Source: Dehalococcoidia bacterium
Lineage (GTDB): Bacteria > Chloroflexota > Dehalococcoidia > Bin125
Length of the DNA stretch: 64,000 nucleotides
Direction: 5' to 3'
Assembly (NCBI GenBank): GCA_965247775.1
Contig: OZ252031.1
Span: 552,125 to 616,124, forward strand
The position numbers and the translations under genes are program-made. The notes beneath the pieces are model-generated. The model had not been told where the DNA came from. It was given only the letters and a program-made list of their open reading frames with translations, and ran no database searches. Numbering within the stretch: the first letter of the stretch is position 1; every line of letters starts with the position of its first letter. This document shows positions 20,759-56,042 of this stretch, in pieces.

Positions 20759-20834
20759 GGGCCCTTAGCTCAGCTGGCAGAGCAGCGGACTTTTAATCCG
20801 AAGGTCCAGGGTTCGAATCCCTGAGGGCCCACCA
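20759..20834 (+). tRNA. tRNA-Lys (anticodon UUU), CCA encoded
   Basis: Hand-folded cloverleaf: acceptor stem GGGCCCT/AGGGCCC, D arm GCTC-AGCTGGCA-GAGC, anticodon loop CTTTTAA, T arm CAGGG-TTCGAAT-CCCTG, and a 3' ACCA. Confidence 0.9.
20790..20834 (+). repeat. att core copy 1 (3' 45 nt of tRNA-Lys)
   Basis: Identical over 45/45 nt to 51730..51774. Confidence 0.85.
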
Positions 20835-20972
20835 CCACGCTTCTTAATAGGACCACCGCGAATCCGGCTCGAATCCGGGCCTGGCGCTGCGGACTGCACC
20901 GGTTCGGCTCCGGCTCGCGCTTGACTTCGTCCCCCACCCGAGCGTCCATGGACGGGCGGAACGGGGGCGATC

Positions 20973-24858: not shown

Positions 24859-24931
24859 GCCGCCATCTCCAGTGCGCGCGCGTGCGTCCAGTATGGCGGT
24901 GAGAACGGGTGTTCGCATCGTAGGGAAGGGC

Positions 24932-25130
24932 TGTTCTGTGAACTCGAATACGCTGATCACCAGCTCTCCGCTCGCCTTCCGCACCTGGGCGATCGCGATC
25001 TCCTTGCTCAAGACGAATCTCCAAGGCACGTCGGGCATGAGGATCCACCGCGATCTGAAGGTCACGCAAGAGACGGCCTGGTAGCTGGCCCATCGCATCC
25101 GCGCATCGTGGGACAAGCAGCAGGCGCCGT
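24932..25130 (+). mobile_element. IS1595-family transposase N-terminal fragment
   Basis: SVNSNTLITSSPLAFRTWAIAISLLKTNLQGTSGMRIHRDLKVTQETAW(TAG)LAHRIR matches the conserved N-terminal region of IS1595/ISXO2-like transposases. There is an in-frame TAG at 25082..25084 and no catalytic domain follows. Confidence 0.5.
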
Positions 25131-25134
25131 GGGT

Positions 25135-25792: not shown

Positions 25793-25819
25793 TGCACATC
25801 ATCCTCAAAAAAAGAGCCT

Positions 25820-27639: not shown

Positions 27640-27643
27640 CACG

Positions 27644-28892: not shown

Positions 28893-29307
28893 GGCCGAGC
28901 CATCGCGCCAGACCTCATGTTCCTGCCAGCTGAGCTGTCCGGTTGGGGCCTGGCTCCGCAGCAGCGAGATCGACGTGCCGGCCGCTCACCCGACTGCGGG
29001 ATAGTGGGTGCCTCCACGGTGTCTGCATCGATGGACGGCACTGGAGGGCGTCGCTGGTGGCTCTAGAGCTGGCAGCCGGGCCCCTCCGCTCTGAGCCGGA
29101 AGAACGACCCCGGGGTTTCGTCACTAGCAAGGGCGGATTGCAGCAGGGGGGATGATCGTCGCTCCCGTGGTCTTGACCGCGGTTAGGGCCTGCGCCGTGG
29201 CGCCGCTCTCGCCGTTAGGATGCGGGACGCGGACCTGCCCGCCGGCGCAGGACATGGGGATCGGGAGATGCCGGCGACAGCGGGATGGCCCGGATCGGAG
29301 GTTCTGC

Positions 29308-30447
29308 GTGGGGGAACGGATTTACGCGAGAAGCCAAGACGGACGCCTCGAACCACTCGAGGAGCAGGCCTTCGCGACGGAGGACGATCTCCAGGCGTTG
29401 ATCGCCGATCACCCCGAGCTGCTCGACGGGAAGCAGATCCAGCCCGACAACCCCCGCCGCTGGATTCTCGTCACCCGTGAGAAGGGGATCGCCGAGTCGC
29501 CCGGAGCGAGCCACCGCTGGGCGGTGGATCACCTGGTCGTCGACCAGGACGCGGTGCCGACCTTGGTCGAGGTGAAGCGCGCCTCGAATCCCGAGATCCG
29601 CCGGACCATCGTCGGCCAGATGCTGGAGTACGCGGCGCACGCGGCAGTGACCTGGACGAAGGACGAGTTGCGCCGGGCCTTCGAGCAATCATCCCGGGAC
29701 CAGGACCGCGACCCCGATCAGGTGCTCGGGGAGCTGCTAGGGCCGGACGAAGACGTGGACACGGATCGGTTCTGGGACGAGGTTGCCCGCAACCTCGCGG
29801 CGAAGCGCCTCCGGCTGCTCTTCGTCGCGGACGGGATTCCGGAACCCCTTGAGCGTGTCGTCGCGTTCCTGAACGCGCAGATGTCCGGGATCGAGGTCCT
29901 CGCGGTGGAGGTGAAGCAGTTCCGGGGCTCGCAGACCCAGACGCTGGTGCCGCGCGTCCTCGGAAGGACGGCGGCATCCCCTGCCGCCGGCTCAGCGCCG
30001 CGATTGACGAGGGAGAAGTTTCTGGGCGACTTCGGCAGCGAAATACAACAGAAGGCGGCGGCGCAGCTGCTGGATGCGGCGAAGGGCGCCGGCGCCACGT
30101 TCGAATGGGGTCCGAGCGGCGTCAGCGTCCGCGTCCCGTGCCCGCTCTGGCCCCAACCGGTCACGGTCGCCTGGATCTATCCTCCCTCGACATCCGAGAA
30201 GGGCTGGATGAAGACCCGGGCGTTCACCTTTGGGGCGGCGATCCTCGAGAGTGACCCGGACGAGCGACTGCGGGCCATCCTGCAGCGCTGGGTGGGACAG
30301 TTCGAGGGCGATCCCTTCGCCGATGCGTCGAGCAAGGGGGTGCAGGCGCGGTCGATCGACCATGCGGAGGCCGTCGGCCAAGTCGAGCGACTGACAGCAC
30401 TCCTCGCGGGTGTCATCTCCGATATCCGATCGCTGGAAGCGAGATGA
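29308..30447 (+). CDS. PD-(D/E)xK nuclease-like protein (NucS/DUF91-like core) with a C-terminal extension
   Basis: ORF track 29152..30447. GTG 29308 lies 7 nt after GGAGG. Carries RWAVDHLVVDQDAVPTLVEVKRASNPEIRRTIVGQMLEYAA (a D...EVK nuclease motif) and LLFVADGIPEPLERVVAFLNAQM. Confidence 0.6.
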   Translation: MGERIYARSQDGRLEPLEEQAFATEDDLQALIADHPELLDGKQIQPDNPRRWILVTREKGIAESPGASHRWAVDHLVVDQDAVPTLVEVKRASNPEIRRTIVGQMLEYAAHAAVTWTKDELRRAFEQSSRDQDRDPDQVLGELLGPDEDVDTDRFWDEVARNLAAKRLRLLFVADGIPEPLERVVAFLNAQMSGIEVLAVEVKQFRGSQTQTLVPRVLGRTAASPAAGSAPRLTREKFLGDFGSEIQQKAAAQLLDAAKGAGATFEWGPSGVSVRVPCPLWPQPVTVAWIYPPSTSEKGWMKTRAFTFGAAILESDPDERLRAILQRWVGQFEGDPFADASSKGVQARSIDHAEAVGQVERLTALLAGVISDIRSLEAR

Positions 30448-30561: not shown

Positions 30562-33500
30562 GTGCCCAAGCCTGTGTTCAGGCGTACGCCCACGCGGGCA
30601 GCGGTCGCGCATTATCATCCCTCACGGCGCGCGCGAGACTGCGGCGTCGGCCCTCGCCTGCGTCTCTGCACTCGTGTCTCCGTACAAACTAGGCGTGAAT
30701 CGAGTTGCGACATTCTCGACAATTTCCCTCCCGGAGTCGCTTCTGACATCCGGCACTCGAGGTACGCGAGTTGGAACGCGGCAATCTCCGGGTACTATTT
30801 CGGTGGAAAATGGTCAGGTCGGCCTGTATATCTCGACCTAGAACCTGACGCGCTTCATAAACTCTCGGTAATGGCCGGAGAGGCCGGCGATCCTGAGACG
30901 GCGTTCGCCGACGCGGTGATCGAGACACTCGAGCTTTCCGCAGCTGGGCCGAGCGTCTTCAGACGGCATCGCGAGGCGTGCTCTGCCTGGATGGTGGGGG
31001 GGCGCATTACCCCTCCTCCGTTCCTAGCCATCTTGGCCCTCTTTTCGATAGTCGCAGAACGGATGCGCTCCGACGATCAGTTTCGTGCGAACAACTACTA
31101 TGGGCGGCTCGCCCAGGCCCTGCGGGTCAGAGACACATCCGTCCGCTGTAAGCTCGAGCGTGACTTCCGACACGACAGCAGTCTTCTATGGGATGGCCTT
31201 AACTCATGGCTGCTACTCAAGGAAGGTCGCCTCGGCTTGCCGACCGCTTTCGCGTTCGACTGGCGGTCTCACATCGGAAGGCCGATGTCTCAGGCACTTG
31301 TATCTGACCAAGATCGGCGACGTTTCAAAGAGGCCTTCAGTGATTTCGGACTTGATCCAGGTCCAGTCGCGCTAACGGAGATGGAGGAGCTACTCGATGG
31401 TTGGCTGCCTCTCTCCTCTGCGTCGGCATCGCTAGAGGGGCTCTGGGGAGTTCGAGACGCTCGTGAACGCATCACTGCTGTCGCCTGCTTGGAACTCGAG
31501 GCTTGGGATGGTCTTCGTGAATCGCAATTCTCGCCGACCGCCGACCTACCGATTCGACTCGTGGGCAGTCTGATCCAGATGCCTCCACCGCGGCTTGAAC
31601 TCGGCCTTAGAGTGAGGTCTCTCGAAGGGGCTCCCGTCGGTTCCTACATGTTGGCGACCGATCATCGTGCCCCAAATGAGGCCGGCGTACTCAGGGGCCC
31701 GGAATCGCCGATAGAACTCATCGAGTCGTCCCTGGAGACATGGTACAAATTCGACGATCAAGACCGAGTCTCGATCCCCGACGCTCTAATTCAGCACGTG
31801 CGACTTGAGTCGAGCGACCAACAACGCCCTGCGGTTACAAGAGCACCGAAGCGCTTAATCACACTGCTCTTCGATCCGGAGGCTCGATGGTACCGGGAAG
31901 TCCCGCGAGCGCGGCTCGGTGAGCGGCACCTGCTGATCGGTCACAGCTCCCTCCAGAAAGCGCTGGAGGCGGTCCTCGACAAGGTTGCTCTCCCAGGCTG
32001 GCAACTACACACCGCCGGTGAACTTGCCGGTTGCCCGGTCGACTGGATCGTGGTGTCCGACGTGCGCATCGGAACTGTGGCCGACGACTGCACTTACGAC
32101 GACGACACTCAGCAGCTGTATCCACTCGGAACTGCGAGCGTGTCGCTCGATGGTGGGTTCCGCATGCCCGGTCGATCAACGTTCCACCGCGATCGGCCCC
32201 CGCGAGCAATCGTGACCCTTGTTGGCGGGCAGCGCGGCAGACTGCACCTAGTGCCCGTCCACTCCACTGACGACGCCACTGGAAGGTTCCTTGGAACCCA
32301 CGAGGCAGTCGCTGAGATTGACCTCGGCGAACTGGGAGCGGTGGAGCATGGTAAGTACCGCCTTGCCTTGGTCGCTGAGAGGGTCCGAGATCGAGATGGG
32401 GCGCTTCTCTACAGCGCTCCTGCTCGATTCGTGAGTGCGGCGGCCGCTCAAATCGAGAGTCGGCCGCGCCTCGCGCATGCTCTGGAGTCAGATCCCCTGG
32501 GTGCGCTTGGTGCCTGCGAGTCCTGGGAGGGGGCAGGCGCGACAGTAGCCGGAGCCCGAACCGACTGCTCAATGACTCCCGGATCCACTGAGGGCCCTCT
32601 CCCACCCGCCGAGTTGGGCGCCCTAGCGCAAGTGGAACCGGACGATGTGTGGTTCTCGCAGGTCGCCGTCAGGGCCTCGCGCTCCTCTGGGACGAGCTGT
32701 CTTCTGGGCTCGCACCACTGGATGCTAGAGTCCGTTCCACCCGGGTCTCGACGGCCTGTGCACGGGGAGTGCCGGAATTGCGGAGCGGAGCGGTGGCACG
32801 GCCGACGGCGTCCACGGCACGCCTCTATCCGCAAGGTGGTCCGCAAGCAGGCAGCCCGCTCGCTCCCTCGCCTTGCCACTCGGGCCGAGGAGGCAGACTT
32901 CGCCTTGCTCATCGACGCGTTGACGTGGTTGGGAGGGGGGCCTTGGGATTCCTTCGCGAGACTGGCATCACAGATAGATGACTCTCCTTGGTTCCCGATG
33001 GAGGCTGCAAGGGATCTGTCGGCACTAGGCCATCTGGACATTGAGTTGGACCCGGCGACGCTGAGGCCACGGTCCTGGTCGATCGCGCCCCCAACTCTGG
33101 CGATGACGAGCTCCGGAACGGCAGTCCTCTGTGGCGCGCGGATCCCATCGCTGACCGAGGCCATCTGCGAGGATGCAAGGAGCCTCGGAGCGGAGATCGT
33201 GGACGAGCTGTCAGCACGTGGCTTGCGGACGATTGGGATCAAGGGGCTTCCAGTGGATGATGTCCACCTGCTCGCCTCAGTGGTCTCAACTGATCAGGCC
33301 GATGTTGGTGTCTCGGTCCAGCCCGCCCTCCAGATTCTCGACAACCTCCCGCCGGTGTCTGAGATCGCAAGTGCGTTGCCAGAGACCCAGTTGCCGGCCG
33401 GCGTCGACTTCTGGAGGTGGGCGCCTGAGAGTCGAAAGTGGACCGAGGTTGGGAGAGTAGGAGAGCTGGGCGTCTTCAGGTTTAGGACGTCACCTGCGCG

Positions 33501-33783
33501 CTTTGGCTTCCGTCGTGCGTCGGGCAGCTCTGGCATGCGCACAGTCGACTCCCGACTCGGGAAGCTGCTCGCAGCTGTCGAGGCTGGAGTTTCTCCTGTT
33601 GCGTACGACCCCGGGACCGCGCGTCTGTTCGCAGCGAGAGGGGCGCAGCTTCCTGGACTCTACGAGCGTGCGATCGTCCTCTGCTCGGGGCACTTGCCAA
33701 CGGACGTAGACGGTCTGGCGGTCGCGTATCGCGAGGTCCCCGAGACTGTCGCGCGCCTACTCTGGTCCAAGCTGTCGGCGTAG
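30562..33783 (+). CDS. Large unknown protein (up to 1073 aa), positional partner of the helicase (DruH-like / DrmE-like candidate); start uncertain
   Basis: Uninterrupted ORF ending 13 nt before the helicase start. No motif recognised except a CxxC ([14 protein letters not shown]). The first approx. 40 codons are Arg-rich and look non-coding. Confidence 0.6.
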
Positions 33784-33796
33784 GGAGGACGTTTAC

Positions 33797-36700
33797 GTGG
33801 TGTTGGGCCCATTGCGTGTCTACGAGGCGATCAAGGAGGGCTACCTCAGGTACTTCGAGACGGCATTCTGGGTACGGGATTCAGCAATTCGGGCAGAGCG
33901 GGCGCAACTGCTCCAGGGCGACAGCCGGTACTTCACCGAGCCCTTGATCGAGCCGGTCCTTCCATACGAGCCACGAGACAGCATCGCTGAAGTTGCGGAC
34001 GCTCTCGACCTGCCGCATCAGATCGCTACGGAGCTCGCCCACATTGTCTTCGGCGAGGGGCCAGACTTCCCGCTGTTCGATCACCAGCGAGAGGCGCTCA
34101 CATCATCGATGGGGCCACCGACCGACGGTTCGAACCCTGTTGTCACGGCCGGGACGGGAGCGGGGAAGACGGAGTGTTTCTTACTTCCGATCTTCGCGAG
34201 GCTTCTGCTCGAGAAGCGAGTCGATGACTCAGGATCGGAGACTCGCTGGTGGGGCGCTGGATTCACTGGTTCGTGGCGCGATGTTCGGAGCGAAGCAGCA
34301 CGACCCGCCGCAGTTCGTGCGATGATCCTCTACCCAACAAACGCCCTCGTCGAGGATCAGATGACGAGGCTACGCTCCGCTGTTCGACGCGCGCGCACGA
34401 TGCGAGAGCCCCTTTCGGTCTACTTCGGGCGCTATACGGGCGCTACGGAGGGAGCGCAAGACTCGCCATCTACAGTCGGAGTGCCGCGCGCGAGGGAAGC
34501 CTCGCTGACGCTCAGAAGTCACGAGAGGGACGTTGACCAGCTACACGAGCCGGCCGACGAACTCCTCGACGAACTGCCGGACCCCCGCGAGGGTGAGTTG
34601 CTCACTCGCTGGGACATGATCGAGTCACCGCCCGACATCCTTGTCACAAACTTCTCGATGCTCAACGTGATCATGATGCGAGAGCGCGAGGAGAGCATCT
34701 TCGATAAGACTGCTCAGTGGCTTGCAGAGGATCGTCAGCGCGTCTTCACGCTGGTTGTTGATGAGCTTCATCTCTATCGAGGCACGCAGGGAAGCGAAGT
34801 TGCTCTTGTCATACGGAATCTGCTTAGGCGACTCGGGCTGAGTCCAGACTCACCACAGCTTCGGTGTATTGGGACCTCGGCATCACTCGACGCCACAGCC
34901 TTGGAGTTCCTCGAGCAGTTCTTCGGCGTCCAAAGGTCTCGGTTCAGAGTGATCGCGGGGAGCCCCGTCGAGATCATGCCCTCTGGGTCGATCCCGCTTG
35001 AGGCCGCATTGGAAGCGGTGGACTCTATCGAAGCCCGCACTCGGCTCGCCAGAGAGCTCGACCTTCCAATGGCGCTCGCCAATGCGTCCCTCAACGATGG
35101 CGGGCAAGTCACCCCCCGTCCTGTACCTGAGCTCGCCAAGTCAGCCTTCCCTGATGCGGAAGAGGAGGAGGGCATTCGAGCGCTCGAGGGTGTTCTTGCA
35201 GCGATCGAGGAGTCCCCAGGTGGCGACCTCTCGACGATTCGCTTCAGAGTGCACATGTTCCTTCGGAACGTTAGAGGGCTCTGGGCCTGCTCCAACCCGG
35301 CGTGCGATAAAATCGGGGAGTATGCGTCGGATGAGCGTCGGATCGGCAAGCTCTACGCGCGTCCGGCTGATACGTGCGCGTGCGGCGGTCGCGTGCTCGA
35401 GCTTCTCTACTGCTATCAGTGCGGAGATGTCTCGCTCGGGGGCTATTCCACCCCATCTAGCAATGCCGCGAGCGGAGCCCCTGATCACTGGTACCTGTCA
35501 CCGACACCCGGCGGCGCACAGGACCTCCCCCGCCAGGACTTCGTCTTCAAGCGAGCATGGGGCGAGTTCATGTGGTACCGGCCAGCGCGAACTCGCCCAA
35601 GCCAGAGGAATAGCTGGGAGCACACGCCCCCGGAAGAGAACTCACTGACCTTCCGGTTCGTGGACGCTGTCCTCGACCCCATCACGGGCCTCTTGCGCCC
35701 CGCGCCCATCGGGGGTGCCACGGGGACCATGCTCTCTGCACCTCCGATGTCCGAGGGCTCAGGCAGAGTACCCGCCTTGCCGCAGCGATGCCCGAACTGC
35801 CTCCAAGAGGGCTGGAATCGGGACCCGGAGACCTTCTTCCGGGGAGTGGTCCGAAGCGAGATCCGAGCTCACACGATGGGCGTAGCTGTGACGGGGCAAG
35901 TAATCGCTGACCGTCTCATCGCGTCCCTAGACCTCCCTCGGGACGAGCCCCAGACGATCGTCTTCACCGACAGTCGGAACGATGCTGCAACAACGTCCGG
36001 TGGCTTGGAACTGAACCACTTCCGCGACCTCGTCCGCCAGCTCCTAGTCGGCGCGGTGGGCGAATCCGAGTCTCCCGCGAAGCTTCTAGCACGTGCAGCG
36101 GCAGGCGACAGTCAGGACGACGACCGGACCGCGAGCCTGAAGCAGAGCTTCCCAAATGAGTGGGGTGCATACCTACTCCGCGCTCGCGGTGCGGCAACCG
36201 ATGCAGACCTTGCTCGGCTCCAGGAGTTCGAGCAAGGGTCCGCAGGTTCGGGAGCTGCCGCCTGGGGAGCGTTACTCCTCGGACTTGAACGCCGGCTGGT
36301 GTCATTGGGTGTAAATCCCTTCGGCCCAGGTCCATCGGTTCGGGCATGGGGCAATGAGGACTGGTGGAGGATCTACGAGGCCCCCGCGGGTGAGTGGATC
36401 ACACTCGACCCGGAGCTCGTGCAGCTTGCTGGCGGTGAGAAGCTCCGACGGATTGCCCGACACCTTGGCGACGCCGTATTTGACCGCGCGGGCCGTGACG
36501 CTGAGTCCATCGGCCTTGGCGTTGTGCGACCGCGCGTGGCCAAGAACGATCTCGCCATAGAGCGAGGCGAGTGGCTGTCGCTGTGCTCGAGCGCCGTGCG
36601 GATCCTCGGGCTATCCAGGAGGTACGGGGGACTCCGCGAGGGAAGGCCTAACTGCCCACGGGTCCTCGCAGGCTATCTTGAGCGAGTGGGCTCCCGGCTC

Positions 36701-39169
36701 GGGATCGATCCCAGCCAACTTGAGCAAGAGGTGAAGCGTGCGCTCGTGGATGCTGGCGCAGTGGACGACTGGTGGCTCCTGCAACTCACCCAGGTAAACG
36801 CCGGGCTCGCCTTCGAGCTGTCGGAGGAAGGGCAGGATGCGTACCGATGTCGCCGGTGCGCGCGCGTCCACCACGACAACCCCCTCGGTGTTTGCACCAC
36901 CGAGGCTTGCGCTTCGTCAGAGTTCGAGACATTCGCCCTGGACAGGACAAGCGACTACTACTCGTGGCTGGCCCTCCAGCCAGCACGCCGGCTTCGCGTC
37001 GAAGAGCTGACCGGCCAAACCGATAGAGAGGAGCAGAGGCTTCGGCAACGCCGATTCAAGCGACTGCTGCTCGAGGACGAGATCGAGCTAACGCAAGGGC
37101 TTGATGTGCTGAGCGTGACGACAACGATGGAAGTCGGGATAGACATCGGCGCGCTCTCATCGGTTCTGATGGCGAACATGCCGCCCGAGAGATTCAACTA
37201 CCAGCAGCGGGTCGGCCGCGCCGGACGTACAGGACAGCCATTCTCATACGCCGTGACCCTCTGCCGGGAGCGGACGCACGATGATTTCCACTTCCAACGA
37301 CTTCACCGGATGACCGCCGCGCCTCCACCCCAGCCGTACCTGGAAGTTAGCCGGCTGCCCCTGGTCAAACGCGTGGTGGCGGCCGAAGCACTACGCCGAG
37401 CTTTTCGGTCCATGCCGCCGGGATCACGGCCAAGACCGGGTCGAGACAGCATCCACGGCACGTTCGGAGCGACAGCCGACTGGGCCACGCTCTATAGGAC
37501 AGACGTTGAGCACTGGCTCGCGGCATCCGAGGAGCACGCCGATCTCGCTGCTGGCCTAGCGGCCTACACGGGGCTCGAGCACGACGGCCAGGCGGAGATC
37601 GTGAGTTGGCTTCGAAGTGGGCTGGTCGATGACGTCGACGAGGCCGTCCAGAGCGATGCATTCCGAAGTCGGGAGCTGAGTCAGCAGCTGGCCTCAGCCG
37701 CGGTCCTTCCGATGTTCGGATTCCCATCTACGATTCGCCCCCTGTACTACAGGGCCCCGGAGAGTCTCCGCGATGACGAGCAGGCGCAGGTGGCAGACCG
37801 ACCTTTGGACCTCGCAGTCTCGCTCTTCGCTCCAGGATCGGAGATTGTGAAAGACAAGCGCTTGCACGTGAGCGGCGGCTTCGCGGCCTGGGACTTCCGG
37901 GGTAACCAGGCCGTACCCGTGGCAGAGCCGCTCGGCGCTCCGATGCGCATCAGACGATGCACCAACTGTGGCTCGATAGAGCCCTCTACTGATGAAGACA
38001 GCCCGTGTCAGGTCTGCGACACGTTGTGCGACTCGGTGAATCTGTTCCAGCCGATCGGGTTTGCGACGACCTCGTTGCTTGGAGGGCAACCGGCGCGCGA
38101 CTTCGACGATCAGCCCGACATGGGACCACTGCTGTCGCCTCCTCAGCTCGCCTTCGGTTCCGACGCGGAGTCCGAGTCCCAGTTTGGGGTAGGTCGAGTG
38201 GAGAGCCTGCGCGGAGCCGATGTGTACTCGATCAACGACAACGACAAGAAGCAGTTCGAGTTCTACGCGAACGGGTCGAGGGTTGTGGTTCCCGATCGCT
38301 CCCTCTACCGAGAGGACCAGGCCCCCCCATTCGGGGCGACGGACCCCTCAGCGGTAGGCTCGATTGGCTCCGTCCGACGAACAGACGTCATGAGGATCTC
38401 ATTCGATGGCATCCCTACGCTAGGTCCGCCGAATCAAGTGATTGGCGTACATGACCGCATGCCGGGCGGAAAAGCAGCGCTGTGGTCATTTGCCGAGGCC
38501 GTTCGAATCGCAGCAGCCGCTGTTCTGGGGGTCGACCCGACCGAGCTTCAAGCCGGAGTTCAACCGTATCGAGTTCATGAGGAGGTGACCGGACGTGTGT
38601 TCCTCGCGGATACCCTCGAGAACGGTGCCGGCTACTCGACCCACCTGGCGACCGAAGAGGGGGCTGCGCAAGTCCTCGAACTCCTTGTCGACGATCTTGG
38701 TCAGCGCTTCCGAGACCCCGCACACGCGAGTGAGTGCGACTCGTCGTGTCAAGATTGCCTGAGAGGATGGGAGAACCGTCAACTTCACCCACGGCTGCAC
38801 TGGAGACTTGCACTCGACGTGGCCGAGGCGGTCAGCGGTCACGCCCTCAGCTTTGAGAAGTGGCGACCACTGGTTTCGAAGCGGGTTGACGCCTTCCTGA
38901 GGGGCTTCGCTGAACCACTCCCTGAGCTCGAGGCAGTCGACGCCGAGGGCCTGCCGGCAATAGTGGATCGGAAGACCGGTCGCGCAGCGATCATCGGACA
39001 CCCTCTTTGGCGGTCCGACCAGAAATTCTGGAGTGCGCCTCAGGCAGTGGCGCTCGACTTCCTCAAGCACGAGCAGAAGGTCAGGGACGTCGAAGCGCTC
39101 GACGCACTTGAGCTACTGATGCGGCCATCCGACCTATACGCGCGATTCGCAGACGCGAGGGGTGAGTGA
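33797..39169 (+). CDS. 1790-aa superfamily-2 helicase fused to a DUF1998-type zinc domain (DruE-like, or fused DrmA-DrmB-like)
   Basis: GTG 33797 after GGGAGGA. Motif [11 protein letters not shown], Ia [31 protein letters not shown]. Cys clusters CSNPACD...CACGG...CYQCG. Motifs [14 protein letters not shown]...[10 protein letters not shown]-terminal LENGAGYS...CDSSCQDCL...HPRLHW is typical of DUF1998. Confidence 0.8.
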
Positions 39170-40281
39170 CAGTCGCCCCCCAACCGCGGCCAGATGTCTC
39201 CCGCACTCAGATGCTCTCCCCCTCGACTGCCGAGATGCTCATGAGTTGCCCTTCGAGATTCGCGTTCTCGGCGGATCCGCGCTTTCAGCCCCTCGATAGA
39301 GGGGGCCTCCCGGCGGCCTTGGGCAACGTGATCCACACTGTTGCCGAGCGTGTCGATGAGCATGAGGCGCGTGACAGTGGCGACAACGCGGACTCGTTCC
39401 TGAGCGAACTGTGGGACGACGCCGTGGCCGGCGAGGTCGGCAAGCTTGAGGCCGAAGCAAGGCTAACTCCGGTGCCGGAACCTCGCCTGTGGCCCAACTA
39501 TGAGGTTGCACGAGCTCGTTTCCTCGGCCGCCTCAGGCGCCAGTCGCGGCGCGGACCGACCGCATCGGGATTAGTGCGGGCTCCTACCAGACGAGAGGTC
39601 TGGATTTCCGCCCCTGACATGCGCTTTAAGGGTCGCATCGATCGAGTTGAGTCCGGACAGGATGGTTCCGTGACCATCGTCGACCTCAAGAGTAGCCAGG
39701 AGTATGGCGATGAGATCACAGAGCGGCATAGACGCCAACTGCTCGTGTACGCGGCGCTCTGGCACTCACAGACCGGCGAATGGCCTCGGCGAGCGGCGAT
39801 CGAACTCAGCTCGGGTGAGCGACGCTGGATGGAGATCCATCCCGCGGAGGCGCAGGAGACAGTTGAGGGCTTCCTCACACTCCTAGACGAGTTCAACGAG
39901 CGTGTCGAGCACGGGGAGGACATGACCGAGCGCGCGGTACCCAGTCCCGACAACTGCGTGCACTGCCCATTCCGCGTGGCATGCAAGCCGTTCTTCGATG
40001 CGTTGTCGCCCAAGTGGGACTGGTGGCTCGTCAGTGGTCTAGGCGAGATTCTGACTGTCACACACCAGAATCTGACGTCCATCACACTCGCCATCGACGC
40101 GACGAATCTCGAGCGTCGCGAGGATTCAACTCTGGTCCGCTTCACCGGACTGCCTCAGTCGATGGACCTAGAGCCAGGAACGCGCTTCGCCTTCGCCGAT
40201 GCCGATCGTGCGCGGACCCGCAGCGACGACCTGCGCGTTATCTTCCCAACCTCTGCTCTCAGTTGGGCCGAGTCCACGTGA
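39166..40281 (+). CDS. Cas4/RecB-like PD-(D/E)xK nuclease with Fe-S cysteines and an extra C-terminal domain
   Basis: GTG 39166 overlaps the helicase TGA (GTGA). N-terminal Cys in [16 protein letters not shown]...IVDLKSS...QLLVYAA, and the C-terminal [10 protein letters not shown]. Confidence 0.7.
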
Positions 40282-40284
40282 CGG

Positions 40285-41280
40285 TCACAGGCTTGCCGAC
40301 GCTCTATGGTGCTCGAGTGCCTCACGACTCGGCCGTAGGGCAGGCGCGGCAGGCAGTGTTAGCTTGGCCCTCGTAAGCGAGGCATAGTTCGTCCCTTTCA
40401 GCCGAGCCGCCACCATGACTGCTCCGGTTGCGGAGTCGAACGCGATGAGGCCGAGATCGAAGAGCGTGTGCAAGTCGGCCCGGAGCAGGATGCCGTTACC
40501 GGGATGATCGGTCGACGGTCCGCGATAGGGAACAATGTGACACGCTTCTAGCACTTCCTGTACATCGCAGCCGGTGACGGCACACCGGCCGTCGTACGCT
40601 TCGAGGAGCTTCTGCCGGAACTCTGGTTGACCGCGTCGCCGAACAATGGAGGCAGCTACCCGCTCACGGGCATCGGGCAGACTTTCTGGGGAAAAGAAAC
40701 CCGAGTCGACAGCGTCGTCTTGCTGAGCGGCAAGCAACTCCGTCATCTGCGCCGGTGTAGGGACGCCCTCTGCCGATGGGATTCCCTCAAGCAAGAAGAA
40801 GCCCTCCTCCCATCCTGCGATAACCGCTAGACCCTCCACCTTGTATCGGGGATCTGGCGAGGGAGAAGTTTGTCGCAAGACTCCTACGGGGACCTCGTCC
40901 TCGTGACACCGCAGCAAGCCACGATTCGTATAAGCCTGACCCCGCTGCTGAGGGTCGGGTCCCTCTTGGAAGTAGCGCATGGACCAGGTCCCACGGGGGC
41001 CTGGTTGCCGCTCTCCATCGGGGTAGGGACTATCAAGGGTTGTCCGTACGCTGAGGGCGTACTCAGTCCACGCTGGCTTGTAGATCCCCTTGGCCCTCGT
41101 AGCTAGGAACGTCCCGTCGGGTAGCGGATCAGGCCACGAGACCTCAGTGCCAGCGCTTTGAGCGAACCAGAGGAGGGCTTGACGATGGTGGTCCGGAAGT
41201 CGGTTGAGGAGGTCGTCAATAGCCACTTGGCGCAGCACATCCGACGGCCATTGTGGAGGCCTTTCCATACTCACAGTCAC
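40285..41280 (-). CDS. HNH endonuclease with an N-terminal SRA/YDG-like domain (candidate modification-reading nuclease)
   Basis: C-terminus YDGRCAVTGCDVQEVLEACHIVPY...NGILLRADLHTLFDLGLI (HNH). N-terminus AKGIYKP...WSMRYFQE...TNRGLL...VPVGVLRQ...RYKVEGLAVIAGWEEGFFLLEG resembles SRA-fold readers. The stop is 3 nt from the Cas4-like stop. Confidence 0.65.
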   Translation of the reverse strand: MTVSMERPPQWPSDVLRQVAIDDLLNRLPDHHRQALLWFAQSAGTEVSWPDPLPDGTFLATRAKGIYKPAWTEYALSVRTTLDSPYPDGERQPGPRGTWSMRYFQEGPDPQQRGQAYTNRGLLRCHEDEVPVGVLRQTSPSPDPRYKVEGLAVIAGWEEGFFLLEGIPSAEGVPTPAQMTELLAAQQDDAVDSGFFSPESLPDARERVAASIVRRRGQPEFRQKLLEAYDGRCAVTGCDVQEVLEACHIVPYRGPSTDHPGNGILLRADLHTLFDLGLIAFDSATGAVMVAARLKGTNYASLTRAKLTLPAAPALRPSREALEHHRASASL

Positions 41281-41935
41281 TCACGAGCGGACACTCGGAG
41301 CAATGAGCCGTACGCGGGTGGCAGAAACGGGCAGCGATGTCGATCAGTCCAAGATTGAACTCCTTTGCTGAGCCCTCGGGCAGGAGCTCCTCCGCGGACT
41401 GCATGAGCGTCCGACTCGCGTAGGACGGTCCACTGATGTCCTGGCCGAGGACTCTTCTCAAGACCCTGCCGCTTCCCTCATCGATCATCGGCACAGCCTG
41501 GCCGTATGCCAGGCACAGGACGGCCCGCGCGCTGTATCGGCCGAGCCCCGGCAACGCCTCCAACTCCCGCAGACCTTGTGGCACCTGGCCTCCGTGCTCC
41601 TGCACCAGAATTCGTGCGCACTCCACAAGCCTGTCCGCCCGGTTCACCAGACCAAGAGTGCGGAAGTGTCGACGCACGCTAGCGACGTTCGCCTGAGCAA
41701 GCGACTCGGGGTCAGGATACTTCGCGATCAAGTCCAGATACGGAGTAACTACCCGAGGAGCTTGGGTCTGGCGGAGCAGCACCTCCGCAACGAGAAGATG
41801 GTATGGGTTCCGGATCTCCCGCCAGGGGAAAACTCGCCCATTCTCACGGTACCACCCGACCGCGGAGTCTGCCAGTTCCCGGCGAGCTTGTAGATCCCGT
41901 GCTCCTTCAGATTCTTCGACAGGCTCTCGTTCCAT
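41216..41935 (-). CDS. HhH-GPD DNA glycosylase (endonuclease III / MutY / Mig-like) with a 4Fe-4S loop
   Basis: LLVAEVLLRQTQA, LPGLGRYSARAVL (HhH) and the C-terminal CHPRTAHCSECPLVSDC. ATG 41935 lies 2 nt after the dcm TGA; the alternative TTG 41941 overlaps it. Confidence 0.75.
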   Translation of the reverse strand: MEREPVEESEGARDLQARRELADSAVGWYRENGRVFPWREIRNPYHLLVAEVLLRQTQAPRVVTPYLDLIAKYPDPESLAQANVASVRRHFRTLGLVNRADRLVECARILVQEHGGQVPQGLRELEALPGLGRYSARAVLCLAYGQAVPMIDEGSGRVLRRVLGQDISGPSYASRTLMQSAEELLPEGSAKEFNLGLIDIAARFCHPRTAHCSECPLVSDCEYGKASTMAVGCAAPSGY

Positions 41936-41937
41936 CC

Positions 41938-43296
41938 TCAACGGCCCCCGGAGGCGGTTGATGGACCGAGGTCACGGTGATCCAAGAGTCGTCTCGCGAC
42001 CTCATAGGCTACGTCAACGTGCACAGCGTTCCCCAGAGCTTTGAAGGTAGCAACTCTGGACGTCGGGACATTGAACTCATCAGGAAAACCCTGCAGGCGT
42101 AGCCCTTCCACACGGGACAAGTGGCGCCGCTCGGGTCCTAGGATGGGAATCTGCGTGCTAGTCATCGCCACCAGAGACGGGCTGCTCGCATATCGCTTGA
42201 CACGCAGGCCAGACGGCCTGAACTGGAGGATGTGTCTCCACAGGTCCCTCTCTTCTCCCTGGCAGTTCCACTCGAGCTTTCGGAGGGAGGGGGGAAAGGC
42301 CTGAAGGCCGCTAACCCAACCTAGGGGAAGTTCGTCTCGAATCGTCGAAAGCCAGGCGCGGTTTGCTCTGATGAACTGCACCTTCCACCGGGGGAACTCC
42401 GTGACTTTGGTTTTCGCATAGCTGGGCAGGAGATTGAATTCCCGCCTGAGGCCAGACGTCCCGTGGCTGGGGGGGTCAGAGCCATTCTCCCGAGCTCGCA
42501 CCTTAGCCCATGGTGTCACGCCTTCGTAGGAGTAGGTCGCGTTGAACTCATCGCCCCATATCGGAAACGACGGCAGCGATATCTGGTCCTCCGAAAGTGC
42601 CCCCAGAAAGGCGGTCCAGTGCTCTATGCAGTGCCAGTGCTGGTCCCCGATGAGTGTCTCCTCGCGATCTCGCGTAGACAGCTCAGTCCGCGCTTGGACA
42701 ACGTCATCCATCGAAGTCACGGCCCTCCTATTCCTCGGCGGGAAGGGACTGGCCAAGAGGCCCTCAAGTGAAGCTACGGCGAAGAAGCGCTCCCGGTGAT
42801 GCGGGAACCCGAGGTGATGTGGTGAGATAAGGCCCTCACCTCCACTCGTGACATGCTCGGTTCCTCGGACCTCGTAGCCGAGCTCTTCCAGGCTGCTCTT
42901 CACGATCGACCATGTGCGTCCCTGGTCGTGGCGTTCAAAGTTCCCGACATTCTCCAAGATCACGAAGCTGGGCCTGTGCCTCTCGACGATCTCTCGAATC
43001 TCGTGAAACAGTGTCCCGGTCGTCTGGTCCCTCATGCCAGCCTGAGCGCCAGACTTGGAGAAGGGTTGGCACGGGAAGCCGGCACAAAGCACGTCGTGCT
43101 GAGGAACGTCGTCCTTTGCGAGCCTGATATCGCCGTGGACGGGCGGCCCATCGAGAAAGTTCTTGCCATAGACCTCTTGGAGTTGGCCATCGATTTCGCA
43201 CGCAAAGACGCACTCGTGCCCAAGACGCTCGAGTGCGAGGCGGAAGCCACCCAGGCCAGCGAAGAGGTCGATGAACCTCATCGGTGGGACGCCCAT
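41938..43296 (-). CDS. dcm: DNA (cytosine-5)-methyltransferase
   Basis: Motif I FIDLFAGLGGF, motif IV GFPCQPFS, motif VI ENV, and C-terminal QGFPDEF...GNAV. Confidence 0.85.
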   Translation of the reverse strand: MGVPPMRFIDLFAGLGGFRLALERLGHECVFACEIDGQLQEVYGKNFLDGPPVHGDIRLAKDDVPQHDVLCAGFPCQPFSKSGAQAGMRDQTTGTLFHEIREIVERHRPSFVILENVGNFERHDQGRTWSIVKSSLEELGYEVRGTEHVTSGGEGLISPHHLGFPHHRERFFAVASLEGLLASPFPPRNRRAVTSMDDVVQARTELSTRDREETLIGDQHWHCIEHWTAFLGALSEDQISLPSFPIWGDEFNATYSYEGVTPWAKVRARENGSDPPSHGTSGLRREFNLLPSYAKTKVTEFPRWKVQFIRANRAWLSTIRDELPLGWVSGLQAFPPSLRKLEWNCQGEERDLWRHILQFRPSGLRVKRYASSPSLVAMTSTQIPILGPERRHLSRVEGLRLQGFPDEFNVPTSRVATFKALGNAVHVDVAYEVARRLLDHRDLGPSTASGGR

Positions 43297-45104: not shown

Positions 45105-46724
45105 GTGGTCGCAAGGATAGGGATCACGGTTCCAAGCAGTCAAGAGGGCACAGGCACCGGAGCGTCCGCGTTCGACGACATCGTGGTGGCCAGACTCTTC
45201 GAGTTCTGGGGGGCGAACACCTCTTGGGAGCGTTCGCTTTGGGCCGTAGGTACCGTGGCGCAGCTGGACGAGCTTCTTGAGGCCTGCGTGGCGGGACTCA
45301 AGCCGGGGGCGCTGCATGCATTTCGGAGTGAGATCCAGCGCTTCGTCGGCCCGGACCCAGGAGTGGGCGATGCCAAAGCCCGACAAGTGCTCCTTGATGC
45401 CATCGGGGGAGATCTGACGGCAGAATCCGTTGGGTGGCACCGACTCAGTCTCGTCGTACCCAATATTCGCAAGGGCTACCTAGCGCGATGGACCACTGCA
45501 GTTCGAGCGAACCCACAGCCTGGTGCTGAGCTCGTAGCCCGCCACGTTGCCGCTCATCTCTTAGATCTCGGCTACTCGCCGAGCCACCTCTACCGATGGC
45601 TTGACTACAAGACAAACCACCAAACTCCACAGCCTGCTCTCGCCAACGTCCTCGACGCAGGAGATCTTGAGCTTGGCGGCGAGAACCCTCGAATGTTCCG
45701 CGTTCTCGTACCAGTTAAGGGGGCTCCCCATCTTCCGAACCCAGCACCCGCCAGCTGGAAGACTGCTCCCGAAGTGTCTCACCTAGTGCACACGTGGGGC
45801 GGCAACATATCTGGGCTGAGGCAAAATGGCGGCTTCCTGTTGGAGGTCTCCGCGATGGATCGGTTTGCCGCCGCAGCGGCGGCTCGTGATGTGATCGACC
45901 GGTGGAACTCGCGGGTCGAGTTGGCAACGAGCGACAGTCTCTCCACCATCCTCCAGGCATGGATCGAGGGTGTGCCATCGCCACTCGATTTGTCCGCACG
46001 ACGAAGAGGTGTCCGGGTCCGTGCTCTTAAGCTGGAGTTTCAACTCTATGCGACGCCAAGGCCAGATCCGTGGGAAGTACGCATTGATGACGCGTTCCAG
46101 CTGGCGCAACCGGCCGAGACCGGCCCTCGCTCAGCAGCAATCGCGGGTGCTTGGGCCTCGATTGCGTCCCTTCTGACGTCAGAACACGAAGACGACCGTT
46201 TGGGGGCACCACGGCTGGCAGCAATCGTCGCTTGTTCCTTCCCACGCGCAGAGTTAACTCGCTTGGCTCGTGTGCACGAGGCTTATGGCAACGATCAGCT
46301 GGCTCAAGACCTGTCTAGCAAGAGCAATCTGGATCGATCGGAACTCATCGCCGCCGCCCTGATGTCGGGCCAAGCTACGGCGATCCGTGATGCTGGTGAC
46401 GAGGCAGCAGCCCGAAGGATGAGGGAACTGCTCACCTATCCCCAAGCGATTCTCAAGCGGATTCGAGGGCACCTGGAAGGCAGCATTAACCGGCTCCACC
46501 GCCAGCGGAATCTCTTGCTCCACGCTGGCCTTGTCTCAGGCGATGGGCGCACAAGAACTCTGCGAAGCGCGCCTACGATCGTCGGCGCAGGGCTCGACCG
46601 GATTGCTCACGCTTGGTTTGCCGAACGCACAACCCCTCTCGAACTCGCGGCGCGAGCGGAGAATGGGATCTCACTCGTCGGGTCCTCGTCTGAGCGACCA
46701 CCTACCCGCCTGCTTGAGCCTTGA
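45105..46724 (+). CDS. 539-aa unknown protein with a C-terminal HEPN-like RNxxxH motif
   Basis: Uninterrupted ORF with lower G+C. INRLHRQRNLLLHAG (motif at about 46506..46523) fits the Rx4-6H HEPN signature. The rest is unrecognised. Confidence 0.5.
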   Translation: MVARIGITVPSSQEGTGTGASAFDDIVVARLFEFWGANTSWERSLWAVGTVAQLDELLEACVAGLKPGALHAFRSEIQRFVGPDPGVGDAKARQVLLDAIGGDLTAESVGWHRLSLVVPNIRKGYLARWTTAVRANPQPGAELVARHVAAHLLDLGYSPSHLYRWLDYKTNHQTPQPALANVLDAGDLELGGENPRMFRVLVPVKGAPHLPNPAPASWKTAPEVSHLVHTWGGNISGLRQNGGFLLEVSAMDRFAAAAAARDVIDRWNSRVELATSDSLSTILQAWIEGVPSPLDLSARRRGVRVRALKLEFQLYATPRPDPWEVRIDDAFQLAQPAETGPRSAAIAGAWASIASLLTSEHEDDRLGAPRLAAIVACSFPRAELTRLARVHEAYGNDQLAQDLSSKSNLDRSELIAAALMSGQATAIRDAGDEAAARRMRELLTYPQAILKRIRGHLEGSINRLHRQRNLLLHAGLVSGDGRTRTLRSAPTIVGAGLDRIAHAWFAERTTPLELAARAENGISLVGSSSERPPTRLLEP

Positions 46725-49874: not shown

Positions 49875-50184
49875 CCCTGAGCCGCTCTCCAGGATCCGTG
49901 CGACTCGGGAGCGCTCCTCGTTGGCCTCATCACGGGTATGCCTTGGAGGCGACGTGACGGTGTCGTGAGACACCGCTGGTGAACGCCTCCGGCCAGGCAC
50001 GCGGGTCGCAGCCTACGTCGACGAAATCCGCGCCGTGGTCTTGCATCGGTCCGGCGCACGGGCGACTTCGCGGGCACATCCTCAGCGTCGTCGGCCCGGA
50101 CACGGTCGGCGGCTGCGCGGTCGGCGCGCGCCTCACGTTTGAGATCGACGGCCGGCCCGCCGATGAACCCGCCATCAACGACTG

Positions 50185-50311
50185 TGACCTGTCCCCCCAG
50201 AACCGGTCCAGATCCTGTGCGAGGATTCGGGCCGGTGAGGAGGGAGTCGGCATGGCGCGGAAGCGGTACACGGCGGAGCCGATCATCGGCAAGCTGCGGG
50301 AGGCGGAGGTC
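50185..50311 (+). mobile_element. IS3-family left-end fragment (IRL plus first 20 codons of orfA)
   Basis: TGACCTGTCCCCCCAGAACCGGTCCAGATCCTGTGCGAGGATTC...ATGGCGCGGAAGCGGTACACGGCGGAGCCGATCATCGGCAAGCTGCGGGAGGCGGAGGT, after which the homology stops. Confidence 0.75.
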
Positions 50312-51108
50312 GGTCCTCCTCCGGCCAACTCGGCATCGCCGGGTAGCAACGCCTTCGGGAGATCGTCGTGCCGATCGACCTCCGAGGATCCGGCGAGTTG
50401 CAGAACGAGCGGATGGTCGATGCCCTCACGCTCCGCTTGGTCCAGATCCTGGTGCATCGCGATCTTGGAGTAGGAGAGCGTCGCGAGGTAGATGTCCGGC
50501 GAGACTTCCCACCCCCTGCGGCGGCGGATCACCCGCTTGACCCGGTGTAGGTACGCGCTCGGCGGCTCGTCGGCAAACTCCGGGAGATCGAGATGCTCCA
50601 GGCTGAGCTTGTAGCGCAACGTCGCATTGTCACCGGCATCGTCGCTCTCGCGCACCAGGTAGTACGGGTCCCGCGGTGAGGCGCGTTCGAGGTCGCACGG
50701 AATCAGGATCAACGGCGCCTGGGCGCGCTCGTCGTCGGCATCGATCCAGTGCAGGACGCCGACGGCGAGGAACAGAACGTTTAGGCCTTGCTCCTCCTCG
50801 TACTGACGATCCCGGGTCCGCAGCGCGCCCAATCGTCGCTGGAGGTCCAGCAGGGGGAGGTCGCTATGCAGGTCACCGGGCCGATCGGGTCGCTCGGGCG
50901 GCTCCGCGAGCTTCCGTCGCGGTTCGACGAAATCGAAGGCGAGCCCGCCCCGCTTCGACACGAGCTCTTCGACGATCTGATCCGGATCGCGATCCACGAT
51001 CCGCACTGCTCGATTCGGCTTGAAGTAGAGCAACGTGTTGCGTCGGTCGAGTTGCAGCAGGCGCTCCTTCCAAGCCCGGAAGGACTCCTGCCAGGTCGTC
51101 ACCGCCAT
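50312..51108 (-). pseudogene. N-terminal DUF4011 region of a large Upf1/DNA2-like helicase, truncated by the IS fragment
   Basis: From ATG 51108: MAVTTWQESFRAWKERLLQLDRRNTLLYFKP...QGLNVLFLAVGVLHW...APLILIPCDLER...NATLRYKL...YLATLSYSKIAMHQDL. No helicase domains follow. Confidence 0.6.
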
Positions 51109-51175
51109 GCCCGTCCTCACCCTACGTCTCGCGGTTCGCGAGGGCGTGAGTGTAATCGAATGGCCTAGACCCCTG

Positions 51176-51588
51176 TGACCTGCCCCCCAGAACCGGTCCC
51201 GATCCTGTGCGAGGATGCGGGCCGATGCGGCGGGAGGCGGAGGTGGCCCTGACGCAGGGGAGGCCGTCGCGCAGGTGGCGCGGCGCCGGGGCGCGAGCGC
51301 GCCGACCGCTGGCGGCGCGAGTCCGGCGGCCTGCGGGTGAACCAGGCGAAGCGCCTCACGGAGCGCGAGCGCGAGACCGCGCGGCTGAAGACGCGGGGGG
51401 GGGGCGACCAGGCCGGGGACCACGCCATCCGCACAGCGGTCACGGCGGGACATGGCGGAGGAAGCCCGCGGGCCCGGCGCTTCGGGCGTGACGGCTCCCG
51501 CCGCGTCATGGCCCTGCTGCGGGCTGCGGGCATCCCGGAGGGTCGCCGCACGAACTGCGGTACTGGGACAACGATCGGGGACAGGTCA
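51176..51588 (+). mobile_element. Internally deleted (MITE-like, 413 bp) derivative of the IS3-family element
   Basis: Left end TGACCTGCCCCCCAGAACCGGTCCCGATCCTGTGCGAGGATGC and right end GGTACTGGGACAACGATCGGGGACAGGTCA. Only scraps of orfA and the orfB 5' region lie between. Confidence 0.7.
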
Positions 51589-51729: not shown

Positions 51730-51774
51730 CTTTTAATCCGAAGGTCCAGGGTTCGAATCCCTGAGGGCCCACCA
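51730..51774 (+). repeat. att core copy 2 (displaced 3' 45 nt of tRNA-Lys)
   Basis: Identical to 20790..20834. It is followed by the same spacer family and an integrase start. Confidence 0.85.
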
Positions 51775-51892
51775 TCACGTTTCTTAATAGGACCGCCGCG
51801 AATCCGACCCGAATCCCGGGCCGGAGCTGCGGACTGCAACGGCTCTGCTCCGGTTTTCGCTTGACTTCGTCCCCCCGCCAGAGCGTCCATGG

Positions 51893-55843: not shown

Positions 55844-55889
55844 CTTTAATCCGAAGGTACAGGGCTCGCGAATCCCAGAGGGCCCACCA
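55844..55889 (+). repeat. att core copy 3, degenerate
   Basis: CTTTAATCCGAAGGTACAGGGCTCGCGAATCCCAGAGGGCCCACCA, followed to about 56035 by the shared spacer blocks (TAATAGGAC, GCGGACTGCA, CTTGACTTCGTCCC, GAGCGTCCATGG). Confidence 0.7.
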
Positions 55890-56042
55890 CCACACTTCCT
55901 AATAGGACGCCTTGAAAACCGCCCCGATATCGGGACGGGAGCAGCGGACTGCAAGGGTTCTGCTCCGGGTCTCGCTTGACTTCGTCCCTCCGCGAGAGCG
56001 TCCATGGACGGGCCGAAGGGAACGATCACGATCGGTGACATG

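Follow-up and report, generated by a model that had tools for sequence, protein, structure and literature searches.

A C5 methylase, a Mig-type glycosylase and an SRA-like HNH nuclease as a possible methylation arm of a Druantia type II-like system in a Dehalococcoidia bacterium

The 5-methylcytosine (5mC)-dependent nuclease MspJI of Mycobacterium sp. JLS is encoded together with a helicase (Mjls0821), a Vsr protein (V.MspJIP) and a C5 methylase (M.MspJI) (Zheng et al. 2010, PMC2938202). About half of the MspJI homologues adjoin a 5mC methylase, an association that the authors considered intriguing and non-incidental and left unexplained (PMC2938202). Here we describe a comparable gene trio at positions 40285-43296 of a 64,000-nucleotide stretch of DNA, hereafter the window, from a Dehalococcoidia bacterium of the Chloroflexota (assembly GCA_965247775.1, contig OZ252031.1, positions 552,125 to 616,124). 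The trio consists of three co-oriented open reading frames (ORFs) on the minus strand, which encode a C5-methylase (Dcm, or DruM), an HhH-GPD glycosylase and an HNH nuclease, and it lies tail to tail with a helicase operon on the plus strand. We propose that the trio serves a Druantia type II-like defence system, acquired horizontally, as its methylation arm, with DruF-DruE-DruK on the plus strand facing DruM-Mig-SRA/HNH on the minus strand and each part acting in the way set out below. We give this proposal about an even chance of being correct.

In gene content, the MspJI locus is the closest precedent for the trio. Both loci hold a helicase-adjacent triad in the same order, in which a C5 methylase is joined by a gene for deamination repair and by a nuclease whose SRA-like domain flips out 5mC. 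However, the window has an HhH-GPD/Fe-S glycosylase in place of Vsr and an HNH domain in place of the Mrr-like PD-(D/E)XK nuclease, which makes these parts non-homologous analogues, and its helicase is the DruE of a Druantia system. In addition, the window methylase is intact and under purifying selection, whereas methylase decay has been suggested for MspJI. We found no paper in the literature that links Druantia with MspJI, and Mjls0821 is described only in the MspJI paper. The first-pass annotation of this DNA had recognized a nuclease architecture of the modification-dependent type and expected it to conflict with a resident Dcm unless the contexts differ or it acts on hemi- or foreign-pattern methylation; the architecture stands, while the adjacent methylase has a precedent in the MspJI family (PMC2938202). 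The convergent recurrence of a triad of methylase, repair gene and 5mC-reader nuclease is new. If our proposal is correct, the MspJI paradox of 2010, that of a 5mC methylase beside a 5mC-dependent nuclease, would have arisen twice from non-homologous parts, which would point to a real selective logic and provide a second, independent system for testing it.

The second described relative is Druantia type II, which Doron et al. in 2018 reportedly defined as DruM-DruF-DruG-DruE. To our knowledge, it is among the least understood large defence systems, and we know of no established role for its methylase. In the window, DruF (1073 aa; 30562..33783, plus strand) matches the PADLOC type II model DruF2 over its full length (1.3e-147), with a C-terminus that also matches DruL4. 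DruE (1790 aa; 33797..39169, plus strand) is a YprA-family helicase with DEAD, Helicase_C and MrfA Zn-binding (MZB) domains, and likewise matches its type II model, DruE2, over the full length (1441.7 bits, compared with 1393.4 bits for DruE4). The operon ends with DruK (39166..40281, plus strand), a Cas4-like PD-(D/E)XK nuclease (PDDEXK_1, 4e-26; PADLOC DruK PDLC00060, 3.5e-50) whose gene is convergent to that of the HNH nuclease. The minus-strand methylase (452 aa; 41938..43296) matches Pfam PF00145 (5.5e-62) and TIGR00675 dcm (1.8e-57), and its best PADLOC model is DruM (PDLC00034, 1.4e-84, full length). Unlike Druantia type II and the PADLOC type IV (DruE-DruF-DruL), the window has a Cas4-like DruK after DruE, and no DruG match was obtained among the 11 ORFs scanned with PADLOC models. 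Furthermore, DruM is the operon leader in type II, whereas in the window it is convergent and downstream, with a glycosylase and an SRA-HNH protein added. Judged on these matches, the DruF-DruE-DruK operon is best described as Druantia type II-like. It had been suggested at first pass that the methylase trio may work with the helicase operon, which was not recognized as Druantia; the suggestion itself is supported by the DruM match and by the recurrence of the combination in three further loci (L084, L096 and L037, below). Each part of the locus is of a known kind, as are the pairing of Mig with a methylase and the presence of DruM in Druantia type II. What is new is the trio itself, as a putative arm that is conserved yet prone to erosion in a Druantia II-like system. 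If the proposal is right, a defined methylation arm could be assigned to Druantia type II, with the methylase as its core and a dedicated repair enzyme to handle the mutational cost of methylation.

The whole system lies within a 31-kb integrative island (20.8-51.8 kb) and appears to have been acquired horizontally. A tRNA-Lys gene (20759-20834; ARAGORN) and the left copy of a direct repeat together occupy 20759..20900 on the plus strand; the repeat, of roughly 110 nt, comprises the 3′ half of the tRNA and about 60 nt downstream. An attR-like right copy of the 3′ half (51730..51840, plus strand; an exact match of at least 45 nt plus an aligned flank) closes the island. The G+C content is 62% between about 29 and 43.5 kb, compared with 67-72% in the flanks. 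No integrase was identified among the ORFs scanned in the window.

The genes of the trio are tightly joined to one another and to the helicase operon. The glycosylase (239 aa; 41216..41935, minus strand) starts at an ATG (41935) that lies 2 nt past the dcm TGA (41940-41938), so the ORF coordinates agree with the spacing first noted. The start of the HNH gene (40285..41268, minus strand; 327 aa from ATG 41268) is ambiguous. Its overlap with the glycosylase is 53 nt from this ATG or 65 nt from GTG 41280, which matches the 50-65 nt given at first pass; however, among 35 aligned HNH homologues, including the 80%-identical P0002, the start mostly corresponds to GTG 41226, which yields a protein of 313 aa and an overlap of 11 nt. 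The longer overlap is thus probably an overestimate, and the genes would be coupled with any of these starts. At the other end, only 3 nt (40282-40284) separate the HNH stop (40285) from the end of the convergent Cas4-like ORF (40281). As anticipated from the size of the gap, a terminator scan found no terminator-like site in it. Terminator and promoter scans of 39.8-43.7 kb found nothing above shuffled expectation, with a single weak terminator site within the Cas4-like ORF against 2.0 expected from shuffles. An identical 3-nt tail-to-tail junction is present in two 80%-identical relatives, L164, which comes from another sample, and L165. Because the junction is also found in L164, it is inherited and not a chance juxtaposition.

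The methylase has intact catalytic motifs, with motif I (FAGLGG), IV (FPCQPFS), VI (ENV), VIII (RERFF) and X (GNAV) all found in the translation. Its orthologues, at 82-88% identity, are present in every close relative. When the window is compared with L164, the ratio of nonsynonymous to synonymous substitution rates (dN/dS) is 0.14 for Dcm, 0.16 for DruK and 0.22 for the HNH gene, and 0.53 for the remnant of the glycosylase. These ratios indicate that Dcm and the HNH nuclease are under purifying selection where both coexist, and we take them as evidence that the whole trio is functional.

The glycosylase also has a described counterpart. Horst and Fritz are said to have reported in 1996 that Mig.MthI, a T/U:G glycosylase, is linked to the GGCC methylase M.MthTI. 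The window protein carries HhH-GPD (3.7e-11) and HHH domains in Pfam, and its best match in the PDB is Mig.MthI (1KEA, 3.3e-42, full length), ahead of MutY (about 1e-30) and the endonuclease III Nth (about 1e-16). In the alignment to 1KEA, the equivalents of Mig F27, E42, A50, Y126, the catalytic D144 and L187 are conserved, and an Fe-S motif of the form C-X6-C-X2-C-X5-C is present in the translation (CHPRTAHCSECPLVSDC). The Mig specificity residues A50 and L187 correspond to V45 and Q182 of MutY, and Mig Y126 was likewise read against PMC2714593. The position of Mig R47 is occupied by Gln, as in MutY; the protein lacks the MutY C-terminal domain. As in the Mig.MthI system, the glycosylase lies beside a C5 methylase on a mobile element. 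In contrast to that system, the host is bacterial, high-GC and presumably mesophilic, and the nuclease encoded alongside is of the SRA-HNH kind, whereas that of Mig.MthI is a type II enzyme. We considered and rejected an identity as housekeeping MutY or Nth: the scores fall below both NCBIfam equivalog cutoffs (MutY, 163.8 bits against 286.5; Nth, 82 bits against 211.7), and the gene is deleted in close relatives. The housekeeping role is further excluded because the whole system sits in the 31-kb tRNA-Lys island. The resemblance to the Mig.Mth glycosylase proposed in the first-pass annotation therefore holds, the housekeeping orthologue that it had named as a refuting outcome is not what is found, and the protein is best regarded as a predicted T/U:G mismatch enzyme of the Mig.MthI type.

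The third member of the trio belongs with a group of nucleases that pair an N-terminal reader with a C-terminal HNH domain. Its C-terminal HNH (beta-beta-alpha-Me) nuclease domain (about residues 205-327; 40285..40656, minus strand) matches HNH_2 (PF13391, 1.6e-16) and the HNH domain of the 5mC/5hmC-dependent EVE-HNH enzyme VcaM4I (PDB; 3e-7 with the single sequence, 1.7e-10 with a profile), and the catalytic His, Asn and His (H244, N258 and H267) are invariant in the family alignment. An AlphaFold2 (AF2) model of the whole protein, built with 36 sequences, has a mean predicted local distance difference test score (pLDDT) of 82, and its best Foldseek match is the SRA-HNH enzyme TagI (6.9e-8), followed by VcaM4I and ScoMcrA. 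The N-terminal domain (about residues 15-165; 40774..41226, minus strand) was also modelled by itself (residues 15-171; pLDDT 85; predicted template modelling score, pTM, 0.82). For this domain, the top Foldseek matches are the SRA domains of SUVH4, SUVH5 and SUVH6 bound to methylated DNA (probability 1.0, TM 0.44-0.54), with weaker matches to SauUSI and the SRA-like domains of AspBHI and AbaSI (probability 0.33-0.72). Sequence and profile searches of the PDB with the HNH family returned the VcaM4I HNH domain and not TagI, and since they did so, the assignment of the reader domain rests on fold comparison. Pfam gave no match to the window's N-terminus even at E = 10. Because Pfam SAD_SRA misses this domain, the protein represents a divergent, uncharacterised SRA-like clade. 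Our models thus indicate that the N-terminus adopts an SRA fold, as the first-pass annotation had supposed when it named the lack of such a fold, together with cleavage of unmethylated cognate sites, as one result that would overturn its reading. Across 64 family members, Y82, D84, W95 and Y99 are at least 90% conserved. Y82, D84 and Y99 may be equivalent to Y55, D58 and Y67 of the TagI pocket, which provide two Tyr walls and a carboxylate, by an equivalence drawn by eye with a spacing that differs from TagI. The family has many full-length homologues, but in viral contigs it has one full-length member only, and a phage origin is therefore unsupported.

The nuclease thus shares with TagI, ScoA3IV/Sco5333 and TbiR51I (SRA-HNH) and with VcaM4I an N-terminal SRA/PUA flipped-base reader and a C-terminal HNH domain. 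TagI-type enzymes and VcaM4I are its best structural matches, and its HNH domain is homologous to that of VcaM4I; by contrast, its N-terminus is too divergent to be found by sequence search against TagI or Pfam SAD_SRA. The gene neighbourhood also differs. Fewer than 6% of PUA-HNH ORFs lie near a DNA methylase, i.e. >94% do not, and neither do the characterised members (Lutz et al. 2019, PMC6765204), whereas the window has an active-looking Dcm in the same gene string. We counted linkage within 4 kb at 59 loci, from genomes or metagenomes, whose context was usable. In 47 of them the HNH gene has neither a C5 methylase nor a glycosylase nearby, a glycosylase is present in 12, nearly always directly upstream, and Dcm is present in 10. 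The linked cases concentrate in the window's own subclade, where 9 of the 12 loci with context carry Dcm and/or the glycosylase. The subclade is therefore an exception in which such neighbours are the rule, and a divergent SRA-HNH clade with a C5 methylase and a Mig glycosylase as default neighbours is new. No conserved residue separates linked from solitary members. If the proposal holds, a large SRA-like-HNH clade that is invisible to Pfam SAD_SRA would supply candidate modification-dependent enzymes and, possibly, reagents for 5mC mapping.

These counts bear on whether the locus is simply an ordinary type II-like restriction-modification (R-M) system with a Vsr-like (V) component. Under such an arrangement, the HNH protein would cut unmethylated sites, Dcm would protect the host and Mig would repair deamination, exactly as with R.MthTI, M.MthTI and Mig.MthI on plasmid pFV1, and the SRA-like domain would serve as a DNA-recognition module only. 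The order of methylase, V gene and nuclease and their translational coupling do resemble a typical R-M-V cassette, the glycosylase matches the REBASE-derived PADLOC model 'Type II nicking endonuclease' (7.2e-42), and weak PADLOC matches tie the HNH domain to type II HNH models. Close relatives have also lost the nuclease while keeping the methylase, which is the permitted direction of decay for R-M. However, most intact HNH homologues (47/59) have no C5 methylase within 4-10 kb, including L085 and L001 of the window's subclade, a state that would be lethal with a classical restriction enzyme. Moreover, all of its closest matches in structure are either enzymes that depend on modification or readers of 5mC. 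Because the majority of loci are solitary and the residues of linked and solitary members are the same, we favour a modification-dependent nuclease over a classical restriction enzyme, and we consider an R-M-V cassette quite improbable.

The combination of genes recurs well beyond the window. In L084, DruE, DruK, Dcm, the glycosylase and the HNH gene are all co-directional, with 4-nt overlaps at DruE/DruK and DruK/Dcm, and the DruE is 32% identical to that of the window. In L096, DruK and the HNH gene face a 601-aa natural Dcm::HhH-GPD fusion, and in L037, DruE and DruF adjoin SRA, HNH and Dcm. The fusion ORF (L096:1697-3502, minus strand; PF00145 at residues 15-342 and HhH-GPD at residues 414-529) is convergent to the SRA-HNH gene and downstream of a DruK fragment; it is known from a single metagenome contig and may be a sequencing artefact. 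The fusion ties the glycosylase to the methylase. A homology search with DruK returned at least 6 proteins, a small sampling of Druantia. Every related locus that we examined has a C5 methylase along with DruE-DruK, and all members of the trio are co-inherited with these two genes. About 7 kb downstream in a distant DruE-DruK locus is a gene string of Vsr, a C5 methylase and MTaX1 (L168:12906-15600); in other Druantia variants, the place of Mig may be taken by a repair gene of the Vsr type. The glycosylase-HNH pair also stands last in an unrelated Dcm-led operon, Dcm-GmrSD_N-Z1-DUF4420-Glyc-HNH (L081:2739-10954; L090/L091 similar), and the pair seems, from these gene strings, to associate with C5-methylase systems in general, beyond Druantia.

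This recurrence can be set against a reading in which adjacency is meaningless, with independent defence and repair genes piled up in an island and the glycosylase-HNH pair a hitch-hiking insertion. Such a reading would fit the dispensability of the pair, which is deleted in L170, L171 and L166, with the glycosylase alone deleted in L164 and L165, as well as the unrelated systems (CBASS-like, type ISP) found beside Dcm in the relatives' islands. It does not readily explain why the combination reappears with a 32%-identical DruE, in another orientation and with stop/start overlaps at DruE/DruK and DruK/Dcm, nor the existence of a Dcm::glycosylase fusion, the linkage to Dcm and/or glycosylase at 9 of 12 subclade loci, or the joint purifying selection on Dcm and HNH. 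We therefore regard mere accumulation as very unlikely.

Close relatives provide a natural deletion series. In L164 and L165, which have 80% nucleotide identity to the window, Dcm, HNH, DruK and DruE are kept and a 392-bp deletion lies inside the glycosylase. In L170 (DruE 91% identical), the blastn alignment with the window breaks at 40272 and resumes at 41922, so that exactly the glycosylase-HNH segment (40273..41921, minus strand in gene sense) is missing. Because a remnant of the glycosylase start codon persists beside the dcm stop, this gap is a deletion. In L171 and L166 (DruE 94% identical), window positions 39951-41480 are missing, so that HNH is absent altogether and both DruK and the glycosylase are truncated at their 3′ ends. 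In L166, an IS21-family element (rve + IstB; L166:10485-12688) also sits within the glycosylase remnant at the equivalent of ~41715, and 41715-41718 aligns on both sides of it. None of the close relatives has lost Dcm, whereas three deletions have affected the glycosylase and two have affected HNH. The series points to a trio that is ancestral in this lineage, with DruM as its core and the glycosylase-HNH pair as an accessory that is repeatedly lost. The coupling in the three-gene operon described at first pass is thus real, and its indivisibility is ruled out by deletions of glycosylase and HNH in relatives that keep Dcm. These near-identical relatives also constitute ready-made genetic controls.

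The same series helps to weigh a rival in which the SRA-HNH protein is not an independent restriction enzyme but a same-pathway reader of the Dcm mark that works with Mig and the methylase. In one version, HNH would bind the 5mC that remains where deamination has left a site in effect hemi-methylated, and would nick the damaged strand, which would make the trio a self-contained very-short-patch repair cassette; in another, it would signal to the Druantia machinery whether DNA is methylated. The window, L081, L083, L084, L090/091, L092, L098, L099 and L142 all have glycosylase and HNH genes that directly adjoin or overlap, and in contigs that are long enough the intact pair is found only at loci that also have a C5 methylase. 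In addition, the pair closes the unrelated Dcm-led operon described above, the linked HNH proteins form one subclade, and SRA domains are able to read hemi-methylated DNA. However, most of the HNH family is solitary with identical conserved residues, and HNH persists under purifying selection in L164 and L165 although their glycosylase is no longer intact, which indicates that HNH is independent of the glycosylase. Glycosylase products are, moreover, already handled by housekeeping apurinic/apyrimidinic endonucleases, and no known SRA-HNH enzyme acts in repair. On balance, we think a shared pathway of this kind unlikely, though it is the main rival to our proposal.

In the methylation arm that we propose, we infer the enzymatic specificities and the way in which self-cleavage is avoided as follows. 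DruM would be an active C5-methyltransferase that marks host DNA at a specific motif, a mark with a presumed role in self-recognition. The Mig-type glycosylase would remove T (or U) from the T:G mispairs left by deamination of 5mC. Vsr is the repair partner of Dcm in E. coli, and we propose the same role here for the glycosylase, because a Dcm::Mig fusion exists and the glycosylase is seen only with Dcm. The SRA-HNH protein would be a type IV-like, modification-dependent nuclease, whose SRA domain flips out and binds 5mC or 5-hydroxymethylcytosine (5hmC) and whose dimeric HNH domain cleaves close by. The resident Dcm pattern would be spared because of sequence context or a low density of host sites, whereas DNA with dense or different cytosine modification would be cut; the nuclease would thereby cover phages whose modification evades a methylation-sensitive Druantia. 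Cleavage by TagI is best when two modified bases direct it (PMC6212794), and this preference makes a density-dependent tolerance of sparse host sites plausible.

Several observations weigh against this proposal. The characterised SRA-HNH enzymes TagI and Sco5333 bind 5mC in many contexts, including Dcm sites. The authors of the TagI study argued that a lack of C5 methylases is what prevents conflict, and the TagI host appears to be without them (PMC6212794). An active Dcm in the same operon is therefore a real puzzle. An independent type IV role would also leave unexplained the tight pairing of glycosylase and HNH, which is intact only alongside Dcm. HNH has been deleted twice in relatives that keep Dcm, and the pair could be costly. 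As to the reader domain, Pfam SAD_SRA was matched in the N-terminus of only 1 of 36 aligned members (E = 0.043), and the pocket residues Y82, D84 and Y99 were assigned by eye. Lastly, the Dcm target motif is not inferable from word-avoidance statistics in 64 kb: CTAG (z = -6.3), GGCC (-4.3) and CGCG (-3.5) are mildly under-represented in the window, a signal too unspecific to name it.

A bolder view turns the puzzle around. The methylase and the SRA-nuclease would form an obligate writer-reader pair, and the Mig/HNH triad and the Vsr/Mrr-like triad of MspJI, both beside large helicases, would define an unrecognised class of defence modules that read their own 5mC mark. In one variant, the nuclease would cut DNA newly or densely methylated by a Druantia-recruited DruM, such that the mark is a kill signal; in the other, it would sense the hemi-methylated replication intermediates of invaders. 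Whichever variant applies, the mismatch-repair gene would serve to keep collateral mutation of the host in check. We consider this an improbable, speculative extension of the proposed methylation arm.

The surroundings of the trio hold further features. In relatives, the neighbourhood of the locus appears to be a variable defence hotspot. A CBASS-like pair (CD_NTase_C + Cap15; L170:14860-16490) lies close upstream of the Dcm orthologue in L170. In two others, a similar place is taken by a restriction enzyme of type ISP (Mrr_cat_2-helicase-ISP coupler; L171:13586-16798 and L166:17117-20179). Just upstream of DruF in the window, a 431-aa ORF (29152-30447, plus strand) has a weak match to the PADLOC candidate PDC-S11 (4.4e-12) and no Pfam/NCBIfam match. 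It was considered as part of the conserved system and rejected, as nucleotide similarity with relatives begins only at about 30734; relatives hold other genes at this position, for example a ResIII/Helicase_C protein in L170. On the other side, similarity to relatives stops at 43554. The region upstream of dcm (43.5-45.1 kb) has 68% G+C and holds long ORFs only, without family match, and a 539-aa ORF at 45105-46724 likewise lacks a Pfam or PADLOC match.

The island itself may be composite. The stretch at 24000-29000 has 71% G+C, which differs from the Druantia block (62%) and from the flanks and suggests a mosaic island, and a 645-aa protein with a ParB_N domain is encoded at 23855-25792 (minus strand), between tRNA-Lys and the Druantia block. 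A third, diverged copy of the direct repeat (55845-55955) bounds a second, roughly 4-kb segment, and this arrangement suggests that integrative elements lie in tandem at tRNA-Lys. DUF4011 is a frequent component of large helicase/nuclease defence proteins, and a 507-aa DUF4011 protein (49930-51453, minus strand) is encoded beside the right-hand tRNA-Lys repeat.

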